Of a DNA stretch of 64,000 nucleotides, positions 9,236-26,911 are shown in pieces. The stretch spans positions 34,996 through 98,995 of the forward strand of contig JASFYY010000133.1 in the NCBI GenBank assembly GCA_045046875.1, read 5' to 3'. The position numbers were made by a program, and so were the translations under genes. This DNA is from Verrucomicrobiota bacterium. GTDB taxonomy: Bacteria > Verrucomicrobiota > Verrucomicrobiia > Verrucomicrobiales > DEV007. Below the pieces are notes generated by a model. The model searched no databases. It saw only the letters and a list, made by a program, of their open reading frames with translations, and was not told the origin of the DNA. How positions within the stretch are numbered: the stretch's first letter is position 1; each line of letters begins with the position of its first letter.

Positions 9236-10176
9236 GCGCGGCGCACCGGAGAGAACTCGCACAAGAGGCTGCAACCAGTGATGGTTGTAGCCAACGCCTG
9301 ATCTGCAAAGCCTTTGGACTCCATCGTTCGACCTTCCGCTATCGTCCAAAACACCCGAGTCAGCAGAGGGGAAATGCTGAAAAGAGTGTGGTTGAGCTCA
9401 GTTTGGAGCACCCTGAATTGGGTTCGGACAAGGTGGGAAGGATGGCACGGAAACAAGGTTATAGGATCAGTAGCAAACGAGTGCGGGATGTGCGTCGCGA
9501 GGAATGCCTGCAGGTTCCACCACCCCGAAAGAAGAAGTCCCGTTGTGGGAAATCAACAGGGAGGCACCCTCAAATAGCGATGAGACACAACCATGTATGG
9601 AGCTGGGACTTCATCCATGACTACACGGTGAGGGGAGGCAGTATCCGCATCCTGAGCCTGGTGGGCGAGTATACGCGTGAAATCCATGCCCTGCATGTGG
9701 AGCGCAACATAGGGGCACGCAAACTGTGTAAAATATTGGAAAGGGTGATCATGGAACATGGAGCACCCGACTACATTAGAAGTGACAATGGACCCGAGTT
9801 CGTGGCCCGATATTTACAGAACTGGTTGGAGGAAGAGAAAGTGAGAACCCTGTATATTGATCCTGGAAGTCCCTGGCAGAATGGTTATGTGGAGAGCTTC
9901 CATGATAAGTTTAGGAGGGAATGCTTGAGCCGGGAGCTGTTATACACCCTGACGGAAGCCCGTGTAGTGGTTGAGCGATGGAGGCACAAGTTCAACTGGA
10001 TCAGGCCCCATCGGAGGTTAAAAATGAACACGCCCCGGGAATACGCAGTCATGGTGGCGGGGATAACCGGTAGCCCTCAAGATACCAGTTGCGCTTCAGC
10101 CTACGGCTTGCGCTCCACAGGTATCTTGACAAGAAAGGTGCTGGGGGTGTTAAGTGCTTACGAACTTCTCACTTAA
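9229..10176 (+). CDS. IS3 transposase OrfB (DDE/rve), expressed as OrfAB by -1 frameshift
   Basis: The -1 frame is open from the slippery site (AVSAAHRRELAQ...) into track ORF 9388..10176; WSWDF, IRSDNGPEF, PWQNGYVESF catalytic motifs. Confidence 0.9.
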   Translation, partial: AVSAAHRRELAQEAATSDGCSQRLICKAFGLHRSTFRYRPKHPSQQRGNAEKSVVELSLEHPELGSDKVGRMARKQGYRISSKRVRDVRREECLQVPPPRKKKSRCGKSTGRHPQIAMRHNHVWSWDFIHDYTVRGGSIRILSLVGEYTREIHALHVERNIGARKLCKILERVIMEHGAPDYIRSDNGPEFVARYLQNWLEEEKVRTLYIDPGSPWQNGYVESFHDKFRRECLSRELLYTLTEARVVVERWRHKFNWIRPHRRLKMNTPREYAVMVAGITGSPQDTSCASAYGLRSTGILTRKVLGVLSAYELLT

Positions 10177-18280: not shown

Positions 18281-19831
18281 ATGAAAATCCCCAGTGTTCT
18301 AGTTTTCGCAACTGTGATTTTATCGATTTGTTCGATCGGTGCTCAGGATGGAATTGAGATGCCCGGTCTCTACAAAGGCCCGCCAAGCATGTTGGGTATG
18401 GCTGAGGGAGGGATGAAGGCTTCCGTGTCTCCGTATTTTTTGGTCAAGGATGTAGATGTGATTGGTTTCGAGGTTGATTGGGGGGATGGGGCAAAGGAAT
18501 TGGTCGCAATGAGCGCCTTGCCGCGTATTCATGAATACAAGACGAGCGGGCGGAAGGAGGTCAATGTAAAAACAAAACACAAAGACGGAACTTTGTCGGA
18601 AGTCCAGTCAGGAGCGGTGACCGCGAATGCTAATGGAGAGGCTTTGGCAACATACGCTCCCGCTTTTCCGGGAGCTGCTGGTTTTGGTAGCGAGACCCGA
18701 GGAGGGAGAGGGGGCAAACTTTATGAAGTGACTTCGTTATCAGGCGGCAGCGAGAAGGGAACCATTCGTCATGCTCTGGCTGCGCAAGGTGCGCGGAAGG
18801 TGGTTTTCAAAGTAAGTGGGGTGATTGAATTGGGTGGCAAGGTTTTGGAGGTTACGAATCCATATGTCACGATCGACGGTTCATCTGCTCCGGGGCTGGG
18901 AGTGGTGCTGAAAGATGCTCCGCTGGTGATCTCGACTCATGATGTGATTGTTCGGCATTTGAAAATGCGGCCGGGAGATGGTCCTAACGGAGTTCTTGGA
19001 CAGTATCGGAATGCGCTGCAGATCATTGGCCATGATGATGGCAAGGAGGTGAATGATCTCAGCAAGGATCCCTATAATATCATTGTCGATCATTGCAGTA
19101 TGTCGTGGTCAACCGATCAGGTGGCTTCGACCTGGTATGGAGCCAGTCATGTGACATTCTCGTGGAATATATTCAGTGAGGCACTTCATGACAGTATTCA
19201 TAATGAGGGGCCTCACTCCACCTCTTTTATGTATGGTCCGGGCAGCATGAACATGTCTTTTCATCACAATATCATTGCTCACGGTGGATCAAGAAATCCT
19301 CTGGTTTATATCAACTGCTCGGCTGAGGTGATTTCGAATGTGATCTACAACTGGAAATATGTTGGGACCAATTTGGGAGGGATTAGGAAATCAAAAGGCA
19401 TTACCAGAGTGAATTTGATTGGCAATTATTATCTGCCGGGGGTGGATACCGATCCTGAGAGGCTGAAGAAGGCGTTTAACGTGAATACCGGATGGAAGAA
19501 TGAGAGGGTATATGTGCATGATAATTCCGGCCTGATAAACGGGGCTATTAAAACCGATTTGGATTTAGGTCGGTTTGAGATTGATACTGGGAAGTTGGAA
19601 AACACACCGGCTTTGCCTTCGACGAATGTGGAGATCAACAAGTCATCTGAGATTTTAAAAATACTCACAGCTAAGAAGGGGGCGGGGGCTCAATCAAAGC
19701 TGGTCGATCCGGTTGATGCTCGGATTAAGCGGGAGGTGCAGAGTGGGACGGGAAAGATCATTGACTCGCAGAAACAGCGGGAAGGTTATGCGCCTTATCG
19801 GAAATCGGCTGCTTGGATTTTTTCTCGGTAA
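18281..19831 (+). CDS. Secreted pectate lyase (PL1-like) with N-terminal PKD-like domain
   Basis: Signal peptide; VDWGDG..HEYKTSG (PKD-like); AFPGAAGFGSETRGGRGG, IIVDHCSMSWSTD, SRNP. Confidence 0.87.
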   Translation: MKIPSVLVFATVILSICSIGAQDGIEMPGLYKGPPSMLGMAEGGMKASVSPYFLVKDVDVIGFEVDWGDGAKELVAMSALPRIHEYKTSGRKEVNVKTKHKDGTLSEVQSGAVTANANGEALATYAPAFPGAAGFGSETRGGRGGKLYEVTSLSGGSEKGTIRHALAAQGARKVVFKVSGVIELGGKVLEVTNPYVTIDGSSAPGLGVVLKDAPLVISTHDVIVRHLKMRPGDGPNGVLGQYRNALQIIGHDDGKEVNDLSKDPYNIIVDHCSMSWSTDQVASTWYGASHVTFSWNIFSEALHDSIHNEGPHSTSFMYGPGSMNMSFHHNIIAHGGSRNPLVYINCSAEVISNVIYNWKYVGTNLGGIRKSKGITRVNLIGNYYLPGVDTDPERLKKAFNVNTGWKNERVYVHDNSGLINGAIKTDLDLGRFEIDTGKLENTPALPSTNVEINKSSEILKILTAKKGAGAQSKLVDPVDARIKREVQSGTGKIIDSQKQREGYAPYRKSAAWIFSR

Positions 19832-19856: not shown

Positions 19857-22800
19857 CTATTTAGGAAACGAGCAATCGAGAAGGAATGATGCTATCTTGT
19901 TTCCTGATTGTTGCGTCGCCTTGTCACAATATTTCCGTAATTCCGAACGAGCTCCTTTGGGAAGTTTGCTTTTCAAGAATTGGGGTTTTTCCCAGCGACC
20001 TTTGCTTTTAAACCATCCAACAAGATAAATCCCGTGGCTCCATTCTGGCTCACTGTTCAGATATCTTTCAATCAGCTGTTCTTTGATTGATTCTAAAATA
20101 TTTGATTTTGTTATTCTGTTGTCGTGTGCGCGTTTGATCTCGATTATGACAGTGATAAGGTTCTCCCCTGAGCTGTCGTGCGGCAATGCTTCTACTTTCA
20201 AATCAACCCTTTGATTGAGGCGATTGACTACGACTTCTCGATTTACCGTTATTCCTTTAAGATCTCTACTCAGCCATTGTTCAATTTCGTGTGATAGTAT
20301 TTCTTCGCGTTTTGGTGAGTCTCCATCCCACACTCTGGAAATATTTTGTCGTTGTAGATTTTCTTGAAAATGTTCAAGGGAATACAGAATCACAGCTTGT
20401 AGATCGTCGCCGTTTCTCACTAGTGAAGCATGGGAGTGTTGGACAAGTTTCAATAGATCCTTGCAAGCGATAGGGGACCATTCGAGACGGTTTTTGTTCT
20501 GAGTTGCTTCGTGCAGTTGCCAACGAATACCACCTTCCTGGTCAGGAGTCAGATGGTTTAGAATTCGACCGAGTTGTTCAGTGTCTCCCCGGCGGGTAAG
20601 TTCACGGGTGCAATCTCCTCGTAGGCTAATGCATTCATCTTCAGGAGTGACGAATGTTGCTTCACGGCTCAGTGGTGGGTCGTCTGAAGGTGGAAAAAGA
20701 TGAATAAGTAATAAATACAAATCGGCAATCTGGTCGGAATCGAGTGAAGATAGAAAAGTAAAGCTTCGTAGGTCGAAATCGGAAACGTTTTCTAGAAATA
20801 GCTTTCGGGTAGACTCTAGATCTGACGCAATCAATGGCCAGATTTGCGTCCACATCTCACTATGTAAAATCAGCAAAGCTGTGCCAGCAAATGCGCGATC
20901 CGATGGAGACTTGAGATTTGTGCATGAGTTTTGAAGTCGCTGCAGAAACGCTTGCGCGAAATCGATAGCCGCTGATCGATCATTTTTGATCAAAAACATG
21001 AGCCCGTCACGCATGGATTGAGGCTTGATGGAAGGTGAGCTTAGAATTTCCGCCAGCAACTCACTGAACGCGCGATCCCATATTTGATTAAAAGCGTGAA
21101 AGTCACTAAACCATCCTTCACTTTCATCGTTAAGGCGTCTTTCGAGCATTGTCTTTAACCATTTACGGCATTCGCTTGGGTTTAATTCGAAAGCGAGTTT
21201 GACCATCTCCTTGTGCTCGTCCTCCGCATTGCTGGAATAATCAATGAGAGCGGCGATCCATTTCTCCCTCACAGCTGCATTTAATTTTTCATCGTCATTC
21301 AATTCATCTCGTAGCCATCTTACAGCGTGATAAGCAGCATTCGAGCCGTTGGTTCTTTGTTCCTCCTTATTTCGCTTATCATTGAATTCTAATAGGAATT
21401 TTTTGGCGGTAGTTCGAAGCAAGGATTTATCTTTAATTGAAAGATTTGCAAAGAGAGGGGCAGAATCGATGTCAAGAGAGGTGAAGTTTAAAGAATCTGC
21501 TTTGGCTAGTAGCGGGGGAATCACATTGACCCATCCGTAGGCGTGACCGCCTCGGCATTGTTCCAGGCCTTCCTCAAACATGTTTTGCCAGGTCGGATTC
21601 TTATTGGAGCGCGCTTTTTGTCTTCGAGCAGATTGTTCACGTCGCCGAGTCAGATGCAGTTCTCCGGCTCGTTCGAAACGCAACATAGTATCGTGGAGGT
21701 CGAGTCCGGCTTTGGTAATCGGGGGAAAGCGATCTCTGATTTCCGGGTATTGTTTATAGCTTTGTTGCAATAATGCGCGGTATTTTTCCCGCGATTCAGA
21801 CCCAGTGTGGAAACGGATGGCCATTGCCCATATCTTACGGCGACTTTCCAGAGCGCTTGAAAGCTGTTCCAATAGCCATCCAAGATCCATCTGAGACAAA
21901 TAGCCGAGAAGTAAAACAACATCTTCAACCTTGGTGTCTGGATGGTTGAGCGCTGTCGAGACGAAAGTATTCACTTGGGCGGAATCAGAGAACACGGAAG
22001 CGATTTCAGATTGATCTGCGACTTTGGGTAAGGGCTGAAATTTCCGGGCCTTGGCGAGCCACATTTCTACCAAGGGGATGGCAATTTCTGGCTGATCAAG
22101 GTTGTCGCAAGCCATTTCAAATACTCGGTCTGCGAATTTCTGAAATGGTGAAAGGGAATCGAAGCAAGCTCGTAAACTACTGAGGAATTCGATTGAATCA
22201 GGTAAATCTTCCGGAAGCAGGTAGCCAGGTAACTGGCGGTAGAGAAATGCCTGATAGGAACCAAAGAAGGATTCTTCCTTGGGGTAGGTGAGGTATGGAA
22301 TTGTCTCACGGACTGAAATGCACGTGGGAACAAGCAGCCGAAGAGCAATTCCCTTCAGAGTATCATCAGTATCGGATACAAGTTCACCTGCGGCTAGTTG
22401 GAGCAATTTTTTTTTCCAAGGTTGCGGATTTTTTTCTATGACACTTAACGCGTAACCGGCATCTCGTCTCATTTCGTCGTGCGGACGTTCCAAAATTTCC
22501 CATAAGGCAGAATCCAAATCAGATAGCTGACATTTTCGGGCGAACTCCAGGGAGAATTGTCTCACCCAGTGATTCCTCGATGAGTCGAGGATGACAGGTC
22601 GCAAAATATCGGAAAGACCTGGGAATGTAATTGTGTGACTTAGGGATGAAATAGATCGGCTGGGCCCGGGGTCCTGGGTTTCCGCTATATCAATCAGACG
22701 TCGAACAAGAGATTCTTTTTGCCCGACTGAGTAAAGGCTCAGATCTGCTTGTAAAAGTGTCTCCGGGTGGTGTTGGAGTAACAACTCGAAAAATAATTCA

Positions 22801-24041
22801 TTGTCAGGGGCGCTGGCAAGCCAGGAGGCGACTTGGATCATTTGCGGGGCCACCATCTCCTTTCCGTCGTCAGTGGGAAGGCAAAGAAGATGTAGGAGTT
22901 CGGTGGAGGGCAAGCTTTCAACATACTCAGCTGCCAATAATTCAGCAAAAGTGTGGTGAGCGAATTTGACGGCAGGGGCAGGAGCTTCAAGACTGGTTCC
23001 AAATGGCTCGAAAAGATTGCTCTGAGCCAATGACTCAATTTCAAATTGGCTAATATCAAAAGTTTTCCCAATATCAAGTATTTCTGCTGACCGCTTCCCG
23101 AGAACATCCGAGTAAGTAAGATGCGCCGGATCAGAAGATCGATCTGATAATACGAGGGCGCTTTTCCCACTGAACATAAACATTGCTGCTATTCGACGTG
23201 CCAGCTGGATTTTTTCTTTCTTACTGGCATTCCCTAGTAAAGATTGGGTTCGTCTTTTTCGCTTGGAGTCCCATTCGTCGATCAACCGTTTGATGGAGTT
23301 TTTGTAAAACTCCCGACGAGTGCCTGCCAAACTCCCTGATTTTTCAAACTGTTCCAAGAGCATATTCAATGTCATCGGCCATCTTGCCAATGGGATTGCA
23401 TCGTTCTTAACAATTTCGTCAAAAAAAGTATCGGCATCCGAATCAGCCGCCAATTTGACATCGTGTCGTCGCAAAGGACAAAGTTCAAAAACGATCTGCT
23501 TCCCTTCGCTGCCCCATAGACGCGCGAGAGTATTCCCTGTCTCGGGTTCCCATGCTGCCGAGCGACATGACAAAACCAAGCGAAGTGTCTCGAGTTGTTG
23601 GTATTTCAACAGTCCTATTAGACTATTGAGTAGAGTTTTCTCACGTAGTAGAGCCTCATCAAGAGCGTCGATTATGAGGATGATTTCCTTCCCTGATTCC
23701 TGGCTTTTTTTCCAGAGCGGGAGGCGAGTAGTCAGATCGGCTAAATTTGATCCCGTGCCGAATTGGCTCGCATGGTAGAAGAGCAGTGTTTGATTTGGCG
23801 TGATGTTTGTTTCTATCTTCTGCCGGAGCCTTTCGAGTTCAGATGTTTTGCCGCTTCCTGGAGGGCCGCATAGAACGAGCACCTGAGACCTGTTAAACAG
23901 ATCTTCGATAACTTGACAGTCTTGGTTGTGAAGTTGTAGTCCATCGGTGTTCGGGTCGACGAAAAAGCCTTCACCGTCTTCTCCGCAGAAGATGGCTGAA
24001 TTTTGTGAATGCCAGTATCTGGGCCAGTCGAACTTTTCCAT
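19857..24041 (-). CDS. STAND/NACHT-like NTPase with helical repeat region and C-terminal PD-(D/E)XK nuclease-like domain
   Basis: 1394 aa; Walker A GPPGSGKT, Walker B ILIIDALDE, LVLSCR sensor-1, WPMTL, FAHHTFAELLAA winged-helix motif; C-terminal NREV..RVDLKV..VIIEIKR..QLIERYL..GIYLVGWF. Confidence 0.85.
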   Translation of the reverse strand: MEKFDWPRYWHSQNSAIFCGEDGEGFFVDPNTDGLQLHNQDCQVIEDLFNRSQVLVLCGPPGSGKTSELERLRQKIETNITPNQTLLFYHASQFGTGSNLADLTTRLPLWKKSQESGKEIILIIDALDEALLREKTLLNSLIGLLKYQQLETLRLVLSCRSAAWEPETGNTLARLWGSEGKQIVFELCPLRRHDVKLAADSDADTFFDEIVKNDAIPLARWPMTLNMLLEQFEKSGSLAGTRREFYKNSIKRLIDEWDSKRKRRTQSLLGNASKKEKIQLARRIAAMFMFSGKSALVLSDRSSDPAHLTYSDVLGKRSAEILDIGKTFDISQFEIESLAQSNLFEPFGTSLEAPAPAVKFAHHTFAELLAAEYVESLPSTELLHLLCLPTDDGKEMVAPQMIQVASWLASAPDNELFFELLLQHHPETLLQADLSLYSVGQKESLVRRLIDIAETQDPGPSRSISSLSHTITFPGLSDILRPVILDSSRNHWVRQFSLEFARKCQLSDLDSALWEILERPHDEMRRDAGYALSVIEKNPQPWKKKLLQLAAGELVSDTDDTLKGIALRLLVPTCISVRETIPYLTYPKEESFFGSYQAFLYRQLPGYLLPEDLPDSIEFLSSLRACFDSLSPFQKFADRVFEMACDNLDQPEIAIPLVEMWLAKARKFQPLPKVADQSEIASVFSDSAQVNTFVSTALNHPDTKVEDVVLLLGYLSQMDLGWLLEQLSSALESRRKIWAMAIRFHTGSESREKYRALLQQSYKQYPEIRDRFPPITKAGLDLHDTMLRFERAGELHLTRRREQSARRQKARSNKNPTWQNMFEEGLEQCRGGHAYGWVNVIPPLLAKADSLNFTSLDIDSAPLFANLSIKDKSLLRTTAKKFLLEFNDKRNKEEQRTNGSNAAYHAVRWLRDELNDDEKLNAAVREKWIAALIDYSSNAEDEHKEMVKLAFELNPSECRKWLKTMLERRLNDESEGWFSDFHAFNQIWDRAFSELLAEILSSPSIKPQSMRDGLMFLIKNDRSAAIDFAQAFLQRLQNSCTNLKSPSDRAFAGTALLILHSEMWTQIWPLIASDLESTRKLFLENVSDFDLRSFTFLSSLDSDQIADLYLLLIHLFPPSDDPPLSREATFVTPEDECISLRGDCTRELTRRGDTEQLGRILNHLTPDQEGGIRWQLHEATQNKNRLEWSPIACKDLLKLVQHSHASLVRNGDDLQAVILYSLEHFQENLQRQNISRVWDGDSPKREEILSHEIEQWLSRDLKGITVNREVVVNRLNQRVDLKVEALPHDSSGENLITVIIEIKRAHDNRITKSNILESIKEQLIERYLNSEPEWSHGIYLVGWFKSKGRWEKPQFLKSKLPKGARSELRKYCDKATQQSGNKIASFLLDCSFPK

Positions 24042-24114
24042 CTTTTTCTAAAATACTCCAATAGAGCTAATTTTTCAAGTTGCTCTATTCGCGAATTGCG
24101 AATACAATAGGTTT
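24042..24114. promoter_or_regulatory. Back-to-back sigma70-like promoters overlaid by two inverted repeats
   Basis: Plus: TTGCTC 24080-85, 17 bp, TACAAT 24103-08, ATG 24115. Minus: TTGAAA 24078-73, 17 bp, TATTTT 24055-50, ATG 24041. IRs AATAGAGC-N14-GCTCTATT (24060-24089) and TATTCGC-N5-GCGAATA (24086-24104). Confidence 0.7.
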
Positions 24115-24684
24115 ATGCTGAAGCCACAAGACATTTTGGTGGTATTAAAACTGATTGTTCAGAACCGTAGTGCAGAGCGGCTTTCCTTTGCGGGTCTTGC
24201 AGAATCGCTGGGAATAAGCGCGTCTGAAACACATGCTGCGGTTAAGCGGGCAATGAAGTGTCATTTGCTCCAGCATTCCACGCATCTTCGAAATCACTCT
24301 AATTTTCCTGCACCGGTGGCCAGTCAATTGATTCGCTTCATTCAGGGAGGGGTGGCCTACGTGTTTCCTGCAGAAAAAGGAGGATTGGCATACGGTCTGC
24401 CCACAAGCATTGGTAGCCATCCTTTGAATGAACAATTCGTTATAGCAACTGATGAATTGCTACCCGTGTGGCCAGATCGAGAAAGCGGTATCAAGGGGTT
24501 GATATTGAAGCCTCTTTACAAGAGTTGCCCGACAGCTGCTCGGAACGATTCCAAATTATATGAACTACTGAGTCTGGTCGATGCCATTCGAGACGATGAA
24601 GTGCGTTTGCGTCAAGTCGCGACTGCTGAATTTGAGAAAACTATTCGGCAACTGGAAAGAAATCCCCCACTGGCAATCTCATGA
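24115..24684 (+). CDS. wHTH protein, putative AbiEi-like antitoxin/regulator
   Basis: KPQDILVVLKL, LAESLGISASETHAAVKR (HTH), YVFPA, GLPT, PVWP, PLY, LYELLSLVDAIR; ATGA-coupled to the next gene. Confidence 0.7.
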   Translation: MLKPQDILVVLKLIVQNRSAERLSFAGLAESLGISASETHAAVKRAMKCHLLQHSTHLRNHSNFPAPVASQLIRFIQGGVAYVFPAEKGGLAYGLPTSIGSHPLNEQFVIATDELLPVWPDRESGIKGLILKPLYKSCPTAARNDSKLYELLSLVDAIRDDEVRLRQVATAEFEKTIRQLERNPPLAIS

Positions 24685-25373
24685 GCACGACTAAAGAGGC
24701 GGTCATAGAAATTTTATTGCCAGTAGTGGAGCGCTTAGAGGATGCAGAGATTCCATTTGTGTTGATTGGAGGGATCACTGTGCCGTTTTACTTTTCTGAT
24801 TTAAGCATCGATCATTTTCGACCGACAAAAGATGTCGATGTGATTGTAGCCGCTACTCAGTTTCTGAGATTTGAACAGGTGGAAGAAAAGCTCAGGCGTG
24901 TTGGTTTTCGGAATCACCCGGAAGTTATTCACAGGTGGCTTCTTGGTGCAACTTTAGTCGATATTATGCCTGCGTCTTCGGATTTGATGGACACAATAAA
25001 CCGATGGTATCCGATTACTTTTGCAACTGCCGAACCATTTGAACTCTCGCCGGCGCAAGCGGCATTGATGGCGAGCCCCGCCTGTTTTCTGGCAACCAAA
25101 ATGGAAGCGTTTGCCAACCGAGGTGGGGGTGACTTTCTAGGCAGTCATGACTTGGAAGATATTGTCTCCGTGATAGATGGACGGCCTGCGATTGTAGAGG
25201 AAGTCGAAAGCCGATGTCCATTTGAGGTTCGGGAGTTTATTCGAGATACGACAAAGAGATTCTTGAGTAATCACGATTTCATGGATGCGTTGGAAGGTCA
25301 TCTCCCTCAGGAACACCGGGAGCCGAAACGTTTGCAAGCTCTGATCGAGAGAATGCAGAGGCTGTCTTCGTAG
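24681..25373 (+). CDS. Nucleotidyltransferase (Pol-beta fold), AbiEii-like putative toxin
   Basis: FVLIGGITV, RPTKDVDV, VDIMP, FLATKMEAFANRG, SHDLEDI. Confidence 0.8.
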   Translation: MSTTKEAVIEILLPVVERLEDAEIPFVLIGGITVPFYFSDLSIDHFRPTKDVDVIVAATQFLRFEQVEEKLRRVGFRNHPEVIHRWLLGATLVDIMPASSDLMDTINRWYPITFATAEPFELSPAQAALMASPACFLATKMEAFANRGGGDFLGSHDLEDIVSVIDGRPAIVEEVESRCPFEVREFIRDTTKRFLSNHDFMDALEGHLPQEHREPKRLQALIERMQRLSS

Positions 25374-25383
25374 ACCAATAATG

Positions 25384-25477: not shown

Positions 25478-26113
25478 ATGAAAAAAATAAAATTAATCAC
25501 CACGGCTTTTTGCACTGTTCTTGGCTTTAGTCTGATCGGCTATTCGTTGGCCGCTGACAAAGGCGATTCCAAATTAGCTTGGAAATCTGTGTTCGATGGT
25601 AAATCCCTTGCGGGTTGGCATCAGGTTGGGGACGGGGACTGGGTGATTGAAGAAGGAGCGATTACTGGGAAAACGCAGAGCGCTGCCAAGCTTTATGGCT
25701 TGCTGGTTTCTGATAAAAAATACAAAAACCTGCGGGTGAAGTTTACTTTTAAATCGCTTGAAGGGAACAGCGGTTTTTATGTCCGTGCTCATGTTGAAAA
25801 GCCGGATAAGGCCCATGGCTTACAGGTGGAGGTGGATCCACGCAATAATACCGGAGGCATTTATGAGAGTTACGGTCGTGCCTGGGTGAGTAAGCCTGAT
25901 GAAGCGCTGGTCAAAAAGGCGTTCAAACATGATGAGTGGAACGAGATGGAAATTTTGGCTGATGGCGGGCATATTGTCACCTGGCTCAATGGAGTTCAGA
26001 TTGCTGAATCCAAGAATGATCCTGTGCTTGAGGCGGGGCATCTCATCATGCAAATGCACTCGGGCAACAAGTTGTTGGTGAGGTTTAAGGATATCCAGGT
26101 GGTGGAGTTGTAA
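25478..26113 (+). CDS. DUF1080 (3-keto-glycoside hydrolase/hydratase) family, secreted
   Basis: Signal peptide; VFDGKSLAGW, GNSGFYVR, TGGIY, EWNEMEI, GHLIMQMH, VRFKDI. Confidence 0.9.
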   Translation: MKKIKLITTAFCTVLGFSLIGYSLAADKGDSKLAWKSVFDGKSLAGWHQVGDGDWVIEEGAITGKTQSAAKLYGLLVSDKKYKNLRVKFTFKSLEGNSGFYVRAHVEKPDKAHGLQVEVDPRNNTGGIYESYGRAWVSKPDEALVKKAFKHDEWNEMEILADGGHIVTWLNGVQIAESKNDPVLEAGHLIMQMHSGNKLLVRFKDIQVVEL

Positions 26114-26119
26114 ACGGAG

Positions 26120-26349
26120 CCACGAAAATATTTTTTACTACCACGAAAAACACGAAAGGCACGAAAAAAGAGGGGATGAGTTAAGAGGGGGATGAGTTAA
26201 GAGGGGGGCTTTGTGGGGAAGTATATTTTTTGTCTTGTTGGGAGTTTTTATTTCCTCCTTCTTTTTCATATTCCTTTCGAGATTATTGACTACGTCTGTC
26301 TCCGCTTCGCTCCGGCTGTGTTTTTCGTGGTTAATCAATCTTCGTGGTT
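26120..26349. repeat. 9-bp periodic CACGAAA inverted-repeat pair, 3' of the GxxExxY gene
   Basis: CCACGAAAAACACGAAAGGCACGAAAA (26141-26167) versus GTGTTTTTCGTGGTT (26318-26332); extra copies at 26120 and 26341. Confidence 0.75.
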
Positions 26350-26756
26350 CAGAGGATGAATCTTTGCACAGTGGCTTTGGGCTGGCAGCCGAAATTGACC
26401 AGTAGGCCTAATCGAAGATCTGTGGATTTGAGGTAGTTCAGGATTTGGGCCTGGTGCTCAGGTACGATTTCTTTTACTGCTTTTAATTCCACTATAATTT
26501 TACCGTGGCAGATTAGATCGGGCTGGTATTTTTGTTTGAGCTCGCTTCCTTTGTAGCTCAAGGTTAATTCAGGTTGGGAAACAAATGGAATGTGGCGCTC
26601 TGCCAACTCTCGTTCGAGGCATTCCTGGTAAACTACCTCTAGAAATCCACAGCCCATCTCTCGATAAACTTCGAAGACGGCGCCTTGGATTTGATAACAT
26701 TCATCCTTATACAAAATTTTTTCATTGTTTATGGGTTTTACTACCACGAAAGGCAC
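26349..26756 (-). CDS. GxxExxY protein (PD-(D/E)XK nuclease superfamily)
   Basis: GFLEVVY, PDLIC..IIVELKAV, HQAQILNYLK..LGLLVNFG; start codon ambiguous. Confidence 0.92.
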   Translation of the reverse strand: MPFVVVKPINNEKILYKDECYQIQGAVFEVYREMGCGFLEVVYQECLERELAERHIPFVSQPELTLSYKGSELKQKYQPDLICHGKIIVELKAVKEIVPEHQAQILNYLKSTDLRLGLLVNFGCQPKATVQRFIL

Positions 26757-26886
26757 GAAAAAGTATAATATAAAAGTTAGTTCATAAATAATTATCGTTG
26801 CGAGATTTTGATTTTGGTTTGGCTGTCATAGGGTAAGTATTCCATTTTTTTTCTCTACTTTGGTGGATTTTGTGCCTTTCGTGGTT
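26736..26886. repeat. 9-bp periodic CACGAAA inverted-repeat pair, 5' of the GxxExxY gene
   Basis: TTTTACTACCACGAAAGGCACGAAAAA (26736-26762) versus TTTGGTGGATTTTGTGCCTTTCGTGGTT (26859-26886). Confidence 0.75.
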
Positions 26887-26911
26887 CCATAAAATGTGTT
26901 TTCTTTGTCAG

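Follow-up and report, generated by a model that had tools for sequence, protein, structure and literature searches.

Organization of the locus

The window analysed here, 64,000 nucleotides of contig JASFYY010000133.1 from a bacterium of the Verrucomicrobiales, contains at 19,857 to 25,373 three genes in two divergent arms: one encodes a large STAND NTPase with a predicted nuclease domain (P0001), while the opposite arm encodes a helix-turn-helix (HTH) protein (P0002) followed by a nucleotidyltransferase (NTase; P0003), together forming a PDC-M21 pair. Comparative analysis shows that the three genes travel together head to head at many genomic sites and co-diverge, that the two divergent promoter-like elements have a single conserved palindrome between them, and that all catalytic residues are kept. 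From this we infer co-regulation of both arms and a role in phage defence. The genes and regulatory elements of the cassette are:

19857..24041, minus strand: STAND/NACHT NTPase gene (P0001), open reading frame (ORF) of 1394 amino acids
24115..24684, plus strand: PDC-M21A HTH gene (P0002), ORF of 189 amino acids
24681..25373, plus strand: PDC-M21B NTase gene (P0003), ORF of 230 amino acids
24080..24103, no strand: 24-bp palindrome (family consensus ATTCGCTATTCGCGAATAGCGAAT), predicted HTH operator, conserved upstream of PDC-M21A across phyla
24050..24078, minus strand: predicted STAND promoter TTGAAA-17-TATTTT, 8 nt before the ATG, its -35 back-to-back with the -35 of the pair
24080..24108, plus strand: predicted pair promoter TTGCTC-17-TACAAT, 6 nt before the ATG, with the same layout as in the family

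The HTH and NTase genes are joined by an ATGA overlap, and 73 bp (24042-24114) separate the STAND and HTH genes. An earlier, sequence-only reading of this stretch had described a 1394-residue STAND protein facing such a coupled pair across 73 bp and two promoter-like elements in the spacer; the ORF coordinates agree with this description and both elements are present as listed. The block has a GC content of 43-48%, being a little AT-richer than most of the window, and occurs once in its 5.59-Mb genome.

Linkage and co-divergence of the three genes

A locus was counted as linked when the STAND gene lies upstream of, and facing, the HTH gene of the pair. Among 401 genomes drawn from the order, all 15 pair loci found (15/15) face this STAND; they comprise 12 new full-length or long STAND ORFs, one cut contig, the window's own genome (G000) and G440, with G595 counted by its cut-contig fragment only (E 1e-3). 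These loci span four families and six genera, and the head-to-head geometry is still exact in the 12 new STANDs, which are only 24-28% identical to P0001. In a further draw of 91 genomes from the genus best represented among these loci, 13 of the 14 STAND loci with the N-terminus present and at least 280 bits face the HTH gene, the 14th having only 141 nt upstream, and none of six weaker STANDs does so, two of these being without upstream DNA. This draw contributed five further genomes, bringing the head-to-head loci seen in DNA to 21, that is, 20 genomes of four families and one metagenomic contig (L131), in which the STAND N-terminus faces the HTH gene (E 5.5e-6 for 27 residues). The linkage first noticed in the window is hence found well beyond it, with congruent gene trees. 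G440, from another genus of the same family, carries the identical head-to-head trio at a different site, and its protein cluster has Verrucomicrobiales sources with consecutive accessions in three assemblies. Two of five close metagenomic loci are linked (one representing the G440 species) and the other three stop within the HTH gene. Indirectly, the longest contig of 7 of the 12 closest STAND clusters, versus 0 of 14 distant ones, is exactly as long as that of a close HTH/NTase or cluster member. The context on the STAND side comes from the genome draws only; no pattern usable for scanning metagenomes could be derived from the STAND alignments, and a single-protein metagenome scan returned no result.

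Outside the order the two modules occur apart, and the STAND and pair families are each widespread alone. A draw of 400 genomes from the phylum held the NTase in 20, the STAND in 12 and both in none; the STAND was also absent from 100 pair loci other than the window's own in genome collections (flanks of up to 8 kb for 80 of them and of 1.5 kb for 20) and from 75 distant metagenomic pair loci. Pair loci from elsewhere than the order draw give a count of 0/130 when those with 300 nt or more of upstream sequence are taken and six loci of fused architecture (see below) and seven close loci are left out. A reading of the window genes as chance neighbours, based on the zero overlap in the phylum draw and the 0/100 loci, was dropped since the order-level loci are linked. 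Among plasmids, 20 records match the STAND and 112 the NTase; viral contigs yielded two STAND relatives without the pair, and neither the pair nor the spacer pattern was found in them. The linked cassettes occupy about 12 different neighbourhoods, with flanking genes in common only within two small groups. The flank ORFs scanned (57 of 89) are mostly housekeeping genes with a few defence-like ones, and include no integrase or transposase.

The STAND and NTase proteins have diverged in step. Their pairwise identities correlate in Mantel tests with a Spearman coefficient of 0.90 in the 12 pairs verified in DNA and of 0.75 in a wider set of 19 pairs (0/5000 permutations in both), and a smaller set of seven pairs gave a correlation of 0.94; the two tree topologies mirror one another. 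In the NTase tree a branch with an SH-aLRT of 83 places the 21 linked sequences on one side and 58 unlinked sequences on the other, a value at which a separate side for the linked NTases is neither established nor rejected. The STANDs of G460 and G429, which lack the pair, are sisters nested within the linked clade, a position which points to a single loss of the pair. The corresponding loci (L216 and L217) lie tail-to-tail with gyrA, and no operator remnant was detected in the 300 nt upstream.

A conserved palindrome between two promoter-like elements

When the 5.59-Mb genome is scored with a matrix derived from 72 unlinked loci of the pair, the window palindrome is the best match (32.1 bits, next 18.0); the core of this palindrome reads ATTCGCGAAT. 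The second-best site (18 bits; G000:C38:70403) falls within coding sequence, has no pair gene nearby and probably reflects chance. In many phyla the start of the HTH gene is closely preceded by a -35 of TTG type and a TAnnnT -10 that enclose a ATTCGCTATTCGCGAATAGCGAAT-type palindrome; 93 of 161 pair loci were anchored on the ATTCGCTATTCGCGAATAGCGAAT core, the rest having variant palindromes or longer leaders. As it is the pair family's own conserved element, the palindrome is most simply regarded as the antitoxin operator, and we predict that the HTH protein binds it. The sequence-only reading had seen two overlapping palindromes in the spacer, of which that at 24080-24103 is the one just described. 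The other (AATAGAGC at 24060-67 with GCTCTATT at 24082-89) was considered as a second operator and rejected: it scores as no operator, 23 of 600 shuffles produced its like and it is not conserved in two related spacers.

The transcript of the pair is probably leaderless, given the predicted promoter. The predicted STAND promoter is by itself no better than chance (0.4+/-0.5 expected), and the evidence for it is comparative. Lineage I, seen as DNA in the window, G440 and L131, has spacers of 72-75 bp there, in which a reverse TTGAA(A/G)-16/17-TAnnnT stands back-to-back with the -35 of the pair; this arrangement is seen in 3/3 lineage-I spacers, 0/72 unlinked loci and 0/13 other loci of the order, and the palindrome precedes the STAND ATG by 38-42 nt. 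A scan for the lineage-I spacer pattern in 401 genomes of the class matched the window alone. A second geometry is found in seven genomes with a 35-36-bp spacer, where TTCGAC-16-TATAGT in forward orientation faces TTGAGC-16/17-TACTAT in reverse and the palindrome falls between the reverse -10 and the STAND ATG. In four more genomes the spacer measures 37-46 bp and has the STAND ATG no more than 8 nt away from the palindrome; these spacers, like the 80-bp one of G584, contain no sigma-70 pair that passed the test. In all 11 short-spacer relatives, then, the STAND ATG lies inside the palindrome or up to 8 nt away.

Variant palindromes also occur. A proteobacterial subgroup of pairs (L013, L014, L016, L021, L024, L029, L050, L058, L059, L072, L079, L086, L087) carries a different, ATATGCTATATGCATAT-like palindrome, and five acidobacterial loci (L047, L053, L063, L070, L090) carry two copies of another variant, which suggests co-evolution of operator and HTH protein. 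A core-like ATTCGTGAAC was seen upstream of a distant STAND with no HTH gene in the locus (L271:1099, G643).

The STAND NTPase and its predicted nuclease domain

P0001 combines an N-terminal NTPase, a helical (HEAT-like) sensor region and a C-terminal nuclease-like domain, and appears to be a distant full-length relative of Erebus/Hypnos (Avs10). It matches the NCBIfam family EruA (NF058535) with E 1.4e-56 and 192.4 bits, the cut-off of 1000 not being reached, in a nearly full-length alignment of residues 46-1391 to profile positions 18-1318; the Pfam NACHT match scores 26.8 bits, and alphaRep/HEAT-like matches fall at positions 465-558 of the STAND profile. The family is large, with 1369 clusters of proteins of about 1400 amino acids at E<1e-30, and of 25 close relatives 24 match EruA and 22 HyoA at E<=1e-5, the best EruA value being 7.6e-85. 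Its functional segments are:

23844..23867, minus strand: Walker A motif GPPGSGKT, amino acids 59-66; G64 and K65 in 80/80 aligned family members
23655..23681, minus strand: Walker B region with D125, D128 and E129; D125 and D128 in 80/80 members
19860..20459, minus strand: C-terminal DUF8371 (PF28130) domain (ESM Atlas), motif E1269, D1280, E1301-x-K1303, Q1322, Y1327
21231..21625, minus strand: sensor segment (amino acids ~806-937) swapped for a diverged allele of the same length, at contig joints in populations X1 and X2

The residues of the C-terminal E..D..ExK..Q..Y motif, which we take to be of the PD-(D/E)XK nuclease type, are kept in 79-80 of 80 aligned family members and in 18 of 19 linked STANDs, the exception being a cut contig. 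The DUF8371 domain would accordingly be the nuclease of the protein; profile searches returned no solved-structure homologue for it. The block at amino acids 801-900 is the least conserved of the STAND against its closest homologue (54%, against 63-78% elsewhere), and an exchange of alleles in the recognition region is possible.

The HTH-nucleotidyltransferase pair

PADLOC assigns P0002 to PDC-M21A (E 3.5e-37) and P0003 to PDC-M21B (E 7.1e-47), adjacent, on the same strand and in order. The predicted model of P0002 (pLDDT 92.9) has a winged HTH at amino acids 1-84, of MarR/ArsR type by structure match (Z 7-8), while its C-terminal domain found no solved-structure match; AbiEi and MenA are not among the matches listed for this search, which used the whole protein as query. 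P0002 is a putative antitoxin and repressor. The model of P0003 (pLDDT 91) is nearest to MenT1 (Z 15.0, root-mean-square deviation 3.2 over 170 residues), followed by MenT3 (Z 10.7); no Pfam match was obtained. A profile alignment (E 2.2e-6) pairs its RPTKDVD with RFTRDVD of MenT1, by which T49, D51 and K140 correspond to T39, D41 and K137 of MenT1, where T39 is described as the auto-phosphorylation site (PMC11375011). Key residues are G30-G31, T49, D51, D53, K140, D157 and D160, and P0003 may be a tRNA-modifying toxin, a putative MenT1/AbiEii-like nucleotidyltransferase. The sequence-only reading had likened the pair to AbiE; it belongs to PDC-M21 and is not demonstrably AbiE, no AbiEi match having been listed for the C-terminal domain of P0002.

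T49, D51 and K140 are kept in 21/21 linked NTases. Three other positions are relaxed in these (R47 in 12/21, S155 in 16/21 and E159 in 16/21) compared to 57-58 of 58 unlinked sequences, the variation being seen in G727, G731, G709, G621 and the short-spacer group; T49, D51, D53, K140, D157 and D160 are constant where these vary, and the window's own NTase retains R47, S155 and E159. Fusions of PDC-M21A-like domains are also found. At six loci (L015:8626-12510, L135, L139, L143, L151, L152) the domain forms the N-terminus of an ORF of about 1290 amino acids downstream of the NTase, an undescribed architecture for which the L015 ORF gave no Pfam match, and proteins of 283-303 amino acids (P0371, P0381; an ESM Atlas cluster of 52 members) join it to a Pol-beta/NTP_transf_2 domain.

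Proposed function and alternative explanations

We propose that the three genes form an anti-phage cassette, inherited as a unit within the Verrucomicrobiales, and that a STAND nuclease of Avs10/Erebus-like type has here come under the autoregulatory operator of a PDC-M21 toxin-antitoxin pair; we give this reading a probability of about 0.58. The HTH protein would bind the palindrome and repress its own operon, as AbiEi-type antitoxins do, and once bound would also set transcription of the STAND gene. In the short-spacer lineage, with the site over the STAND start, this would be plain repression; in the lineage of the window the protein may occlude or remodel the region upstream of the STAND -35 (the UP-element region), with repression or activation as the outcome. 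Lambda CI at PRM is an example of a repressor acting as an activator from an upstream site. Control of both arms by the HTH protein, as first suggested from the window, finds a good argument in the geometry of the short-spacer relatives and a weaker one in the window itself, where the element is upstream of the STAND -35. During infection the STAND would bind a phage structural protein, oligomerise, cut DNA and kill the infected cell; the major capsid protein is its probable ligand, a guess in view of the EruA score far below the cut-off. The HTH protein would hold the NTase off, perhaps via induced auto-phosphorylation at T49, and loss of the antitoxin would free the NTase to extend tRNA 3' ends, blocking translation. 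STAND synthesis would in turn rise when the HTH protein is lost through infection or stress. Because the pair never occurs without the STAND in the order draw and the STAND sometimes occurs without the pair, the pair may be an accessory control and back-up layer and not an obligatory effector, and because two close STANDs lack it, the STAND probably works alone. The earlier idea of one unit with a nucleotidylating effector is thereby modified: the linked cassette stands, and the STAND has a nuclease-like domain of its own and does not seem to require the NTase.

A more specific form of this proposal, which we hold tentatively and at somewhat less than even odds, is a composite immune system in which an NLR-like receptor is transcriptionally slaved to an antitoxin and the promoter has twice been rearranged around one operator (face-to-face at 35 bp and back-to-back at 73 bp). 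Antitoxin loss upon infection would then immediately switch on a capsid-sensing nuclease and free a toxin that blocks translation; the antitoxin would serve as an early alarm priming the receptor, and the toxin as a safeguard against inhibitors of the receptor made by phages.

Several observations weigh against the proposed cassette function. The match to EruA is far under its cut-off. The counts are not independent, since a single genus supplied ten of the 13 other loci of the order; only three lineage-I spacers were observed as DNA, five of seven lineage-I pairs were inferred from equal contig sizes, and one HTH protein of only 39% identity has such an equal contig size, probably by chance. 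Co-divergence was measured between STAND and NTase only, without a host tree. The window palindrome overlaps neither the -35 nor the -10 of the STAND promoter, no second operator site was found in the window spacer and a sigma-70-like pair was not found in 5 of 15 linked spacers (G727, G731, G709, G621, G584). The close STANDs of G460 and G429, 44-45% identical and with the motif intact, have no pair within about 8 kb, two more distant ones (G428 and G432) being likewise unlinked, and the flanks of the cassettes are mostly housekeeping genes and not defence islands. Finally, the AbiE system of S. agalactiae gave E. coli no protection against 32 coliphages (10.64898/2026.01.19.700257), which qualifies the premise that AbiE pairs defend against phage; according to the same source, lactococcal AbiE and SanaTA do protect and AbiE is now assigned to type VII.

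The patchy presence of the cassette, with empty sites, would also be expected if the pair acted as an addiction module preventing loss of a costly STAND, the STAND promoter being merely packed against that of the pair with no meaningful HTH control in the lineage of the window. The pair always accompanies the STAND and not the reverse, the palindrome is an element of the pair family present without any STAND, and its position in the window is upstream of the STAND -35, all of which fit this explanation. It is nevertheless rather unlikely, as in the 11 relatives with the STAND ATG inside the palindrome or no more than 8 nt away a bound repressor could hardly leave the STAND promoter unaffected, the exact geometry persists at 24-28% STAND identity and no integrase or transposase was seen among the scanned flank ORFs. 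The tight co-divergence could alternatively reflect contact between the proteins, with the NTase or HTH protein acting on or monitoring the STAND and the shared promoter serving just for stoichiometry: inhibition of the STAND by a phage factor could set the toxin free, or the STAND could be kept in check through nucleotidylation by the NTase. The relaxed R47, S155 and E159 of linked NTases could then mean an altered substrate, but the window NTase keeps all three, close STANDs persist without the pair and the recorded substrates of MenT-type enzymes are tRNAs (PMC11375011), making a guard function of this kind improbable. The NTase tree is compatible with one origin and both families are unlinked outside the order, as would follow if two independent defence modules had been joined once in an ancestor of the Verrucomicrobiales and inherited vertically without any coupling. 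Such hitch-hiking is very improbable considering that the cassette occupies about 12 genomic sites in 15 of 401 genomes with constant orientation and a 35-80 bp spacer.

Relation to known systems

A preprint unites Erebus, Hypnos and bNACHT64 as Avs10, activated by the phage major capsid protein, and its available text makes no mention of AbiE, HTH, nucleotidyltransferase or operon (10.64898/2026.01.04.697583). P0001 resembles this group in its full-length EruA similarity and in the order of N-terminal NACHT, helical sensor and C-terminal nuclease-like domain, and differs in its score (192 bits versus 1000) and in being tied to a divergent toxin-antitoxin pair. The PDC families are untested candidates predicted by their embedding in other systems, and the main text of the preprint describing them does not name 'M21' (10.1101/2024.01.29.577857). 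Both pair genes of the window match PDC-M21 in order and adjacency and have the same palindrome upstream, whereas the linked members are set apart in the tree and, in this order, always face a STAND. With AbiE and MenAT the pair shares the fold and active-site residues of MenT1 and, as in AbiEi, a two-domain HTH partner encoded upstream and an inverted repeat in the operon promoter (PMC7319586), but the C-terminal domain of P0002 is without an AbiEi/MenA match. ParA systems that have captured toxin-antitoxin pairs show a different arrangement (10.64898/2026.10.19.760177). In agreement with the sequence-only reading, no description of a STAND combined with PDC-M21 was found in the literature searched, which did not extend to preprint supplements or to subscription papers such as that first describing Erebus; the accessible portions of 10.1101/2025.09.30.679545 and 10.64898/2026.10.19.760177 do not describe it either.

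The cassette thus appears to be a real, conserved and new composite of known parts, both modules being of known kinds. STAND/NLR receptors with nuclease effectors are lethal when over-expressed, and a repressor at a divergent promoter can keep a toxic immune gene low, as with the defence regulators BrxR, CapW, CapH/CapP and the controller proteins of restriction-modification systems, and in the lambda PR/PRM switch. In contrast to these cases, the regulator here would be the antitoxin of a second, toxin-bearing arm, and there is no WYL or peptidase partner. To our knowledge, little has been reported on how bacteria set STAND/NLR levels, most Avs genes having been studied singly, and we know of no AbiE system that controls a neighbouring STAND. 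The arrangement suggests that the antitoxin sets the amount of a dangerous sensor made by the cell, and the cassette offers a compact, testable case of an antitoxin apparently controlling an NLR-like gene. The cassette also supplies a context for the candidate PDC-M21 and predicts its 24-bp operator; two promoter geometries and STANDs that have lost the pair provide natural variants for comparison.

Genomic surroundings of the cassette

Outside the cassette the immediate neighbours are:

18281..19831, plus strand: pectate-lyase-like gene, left flank (NCBIfam PelZ, E 2.1e-46, below cut-off)
25478..26113, plus strand: 3-keto-disaccharide hydrolase gene, right flank (Pfam PF06439)

The block had been described as interrupting glycan-catabolism genes. 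The two flanks roughly agree with this, and the block is part of a larger variable region. The hydrolase gene occurs without the cassette in four of five genomes of the same genus, and the cassette was not found in 30 relatives. In G001 and G005 a DUF454 gene directly adjoins the hydrolase gene, a junction which implies that the whole stretch of 14.2-25.4 kb is variable, and in G003 a lyase remnant is joined at position 25380, 6 nt past the NTase stop. Related populations carry the full cassette (on a 7037-bp contig in run X1) as well as joints that skip it, at 19804->26140 in X1 and 19798->26146 in X4; the shorter side of these joints measures 34 and 24 letters, respectively, at likeness 80, so that each is weak taken singly. 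Depth in X4 is about 0.5 across the cassette versus 18-54 in the nearest flanks.

An IS3-family-like integrase-core ORF lies about 10 kb to the left (9388-10176), with no tie to the cassette seen. To the right, within 26120-26900, a GxxExxY (PDDEXK_3) gene at 26349-26756 is situated between ACCACGAAA...CACGAA repeats together with a 17-bp tandem duplication, and a short repeat resembling these repeats fills the empty cassette site in X1 and X4.

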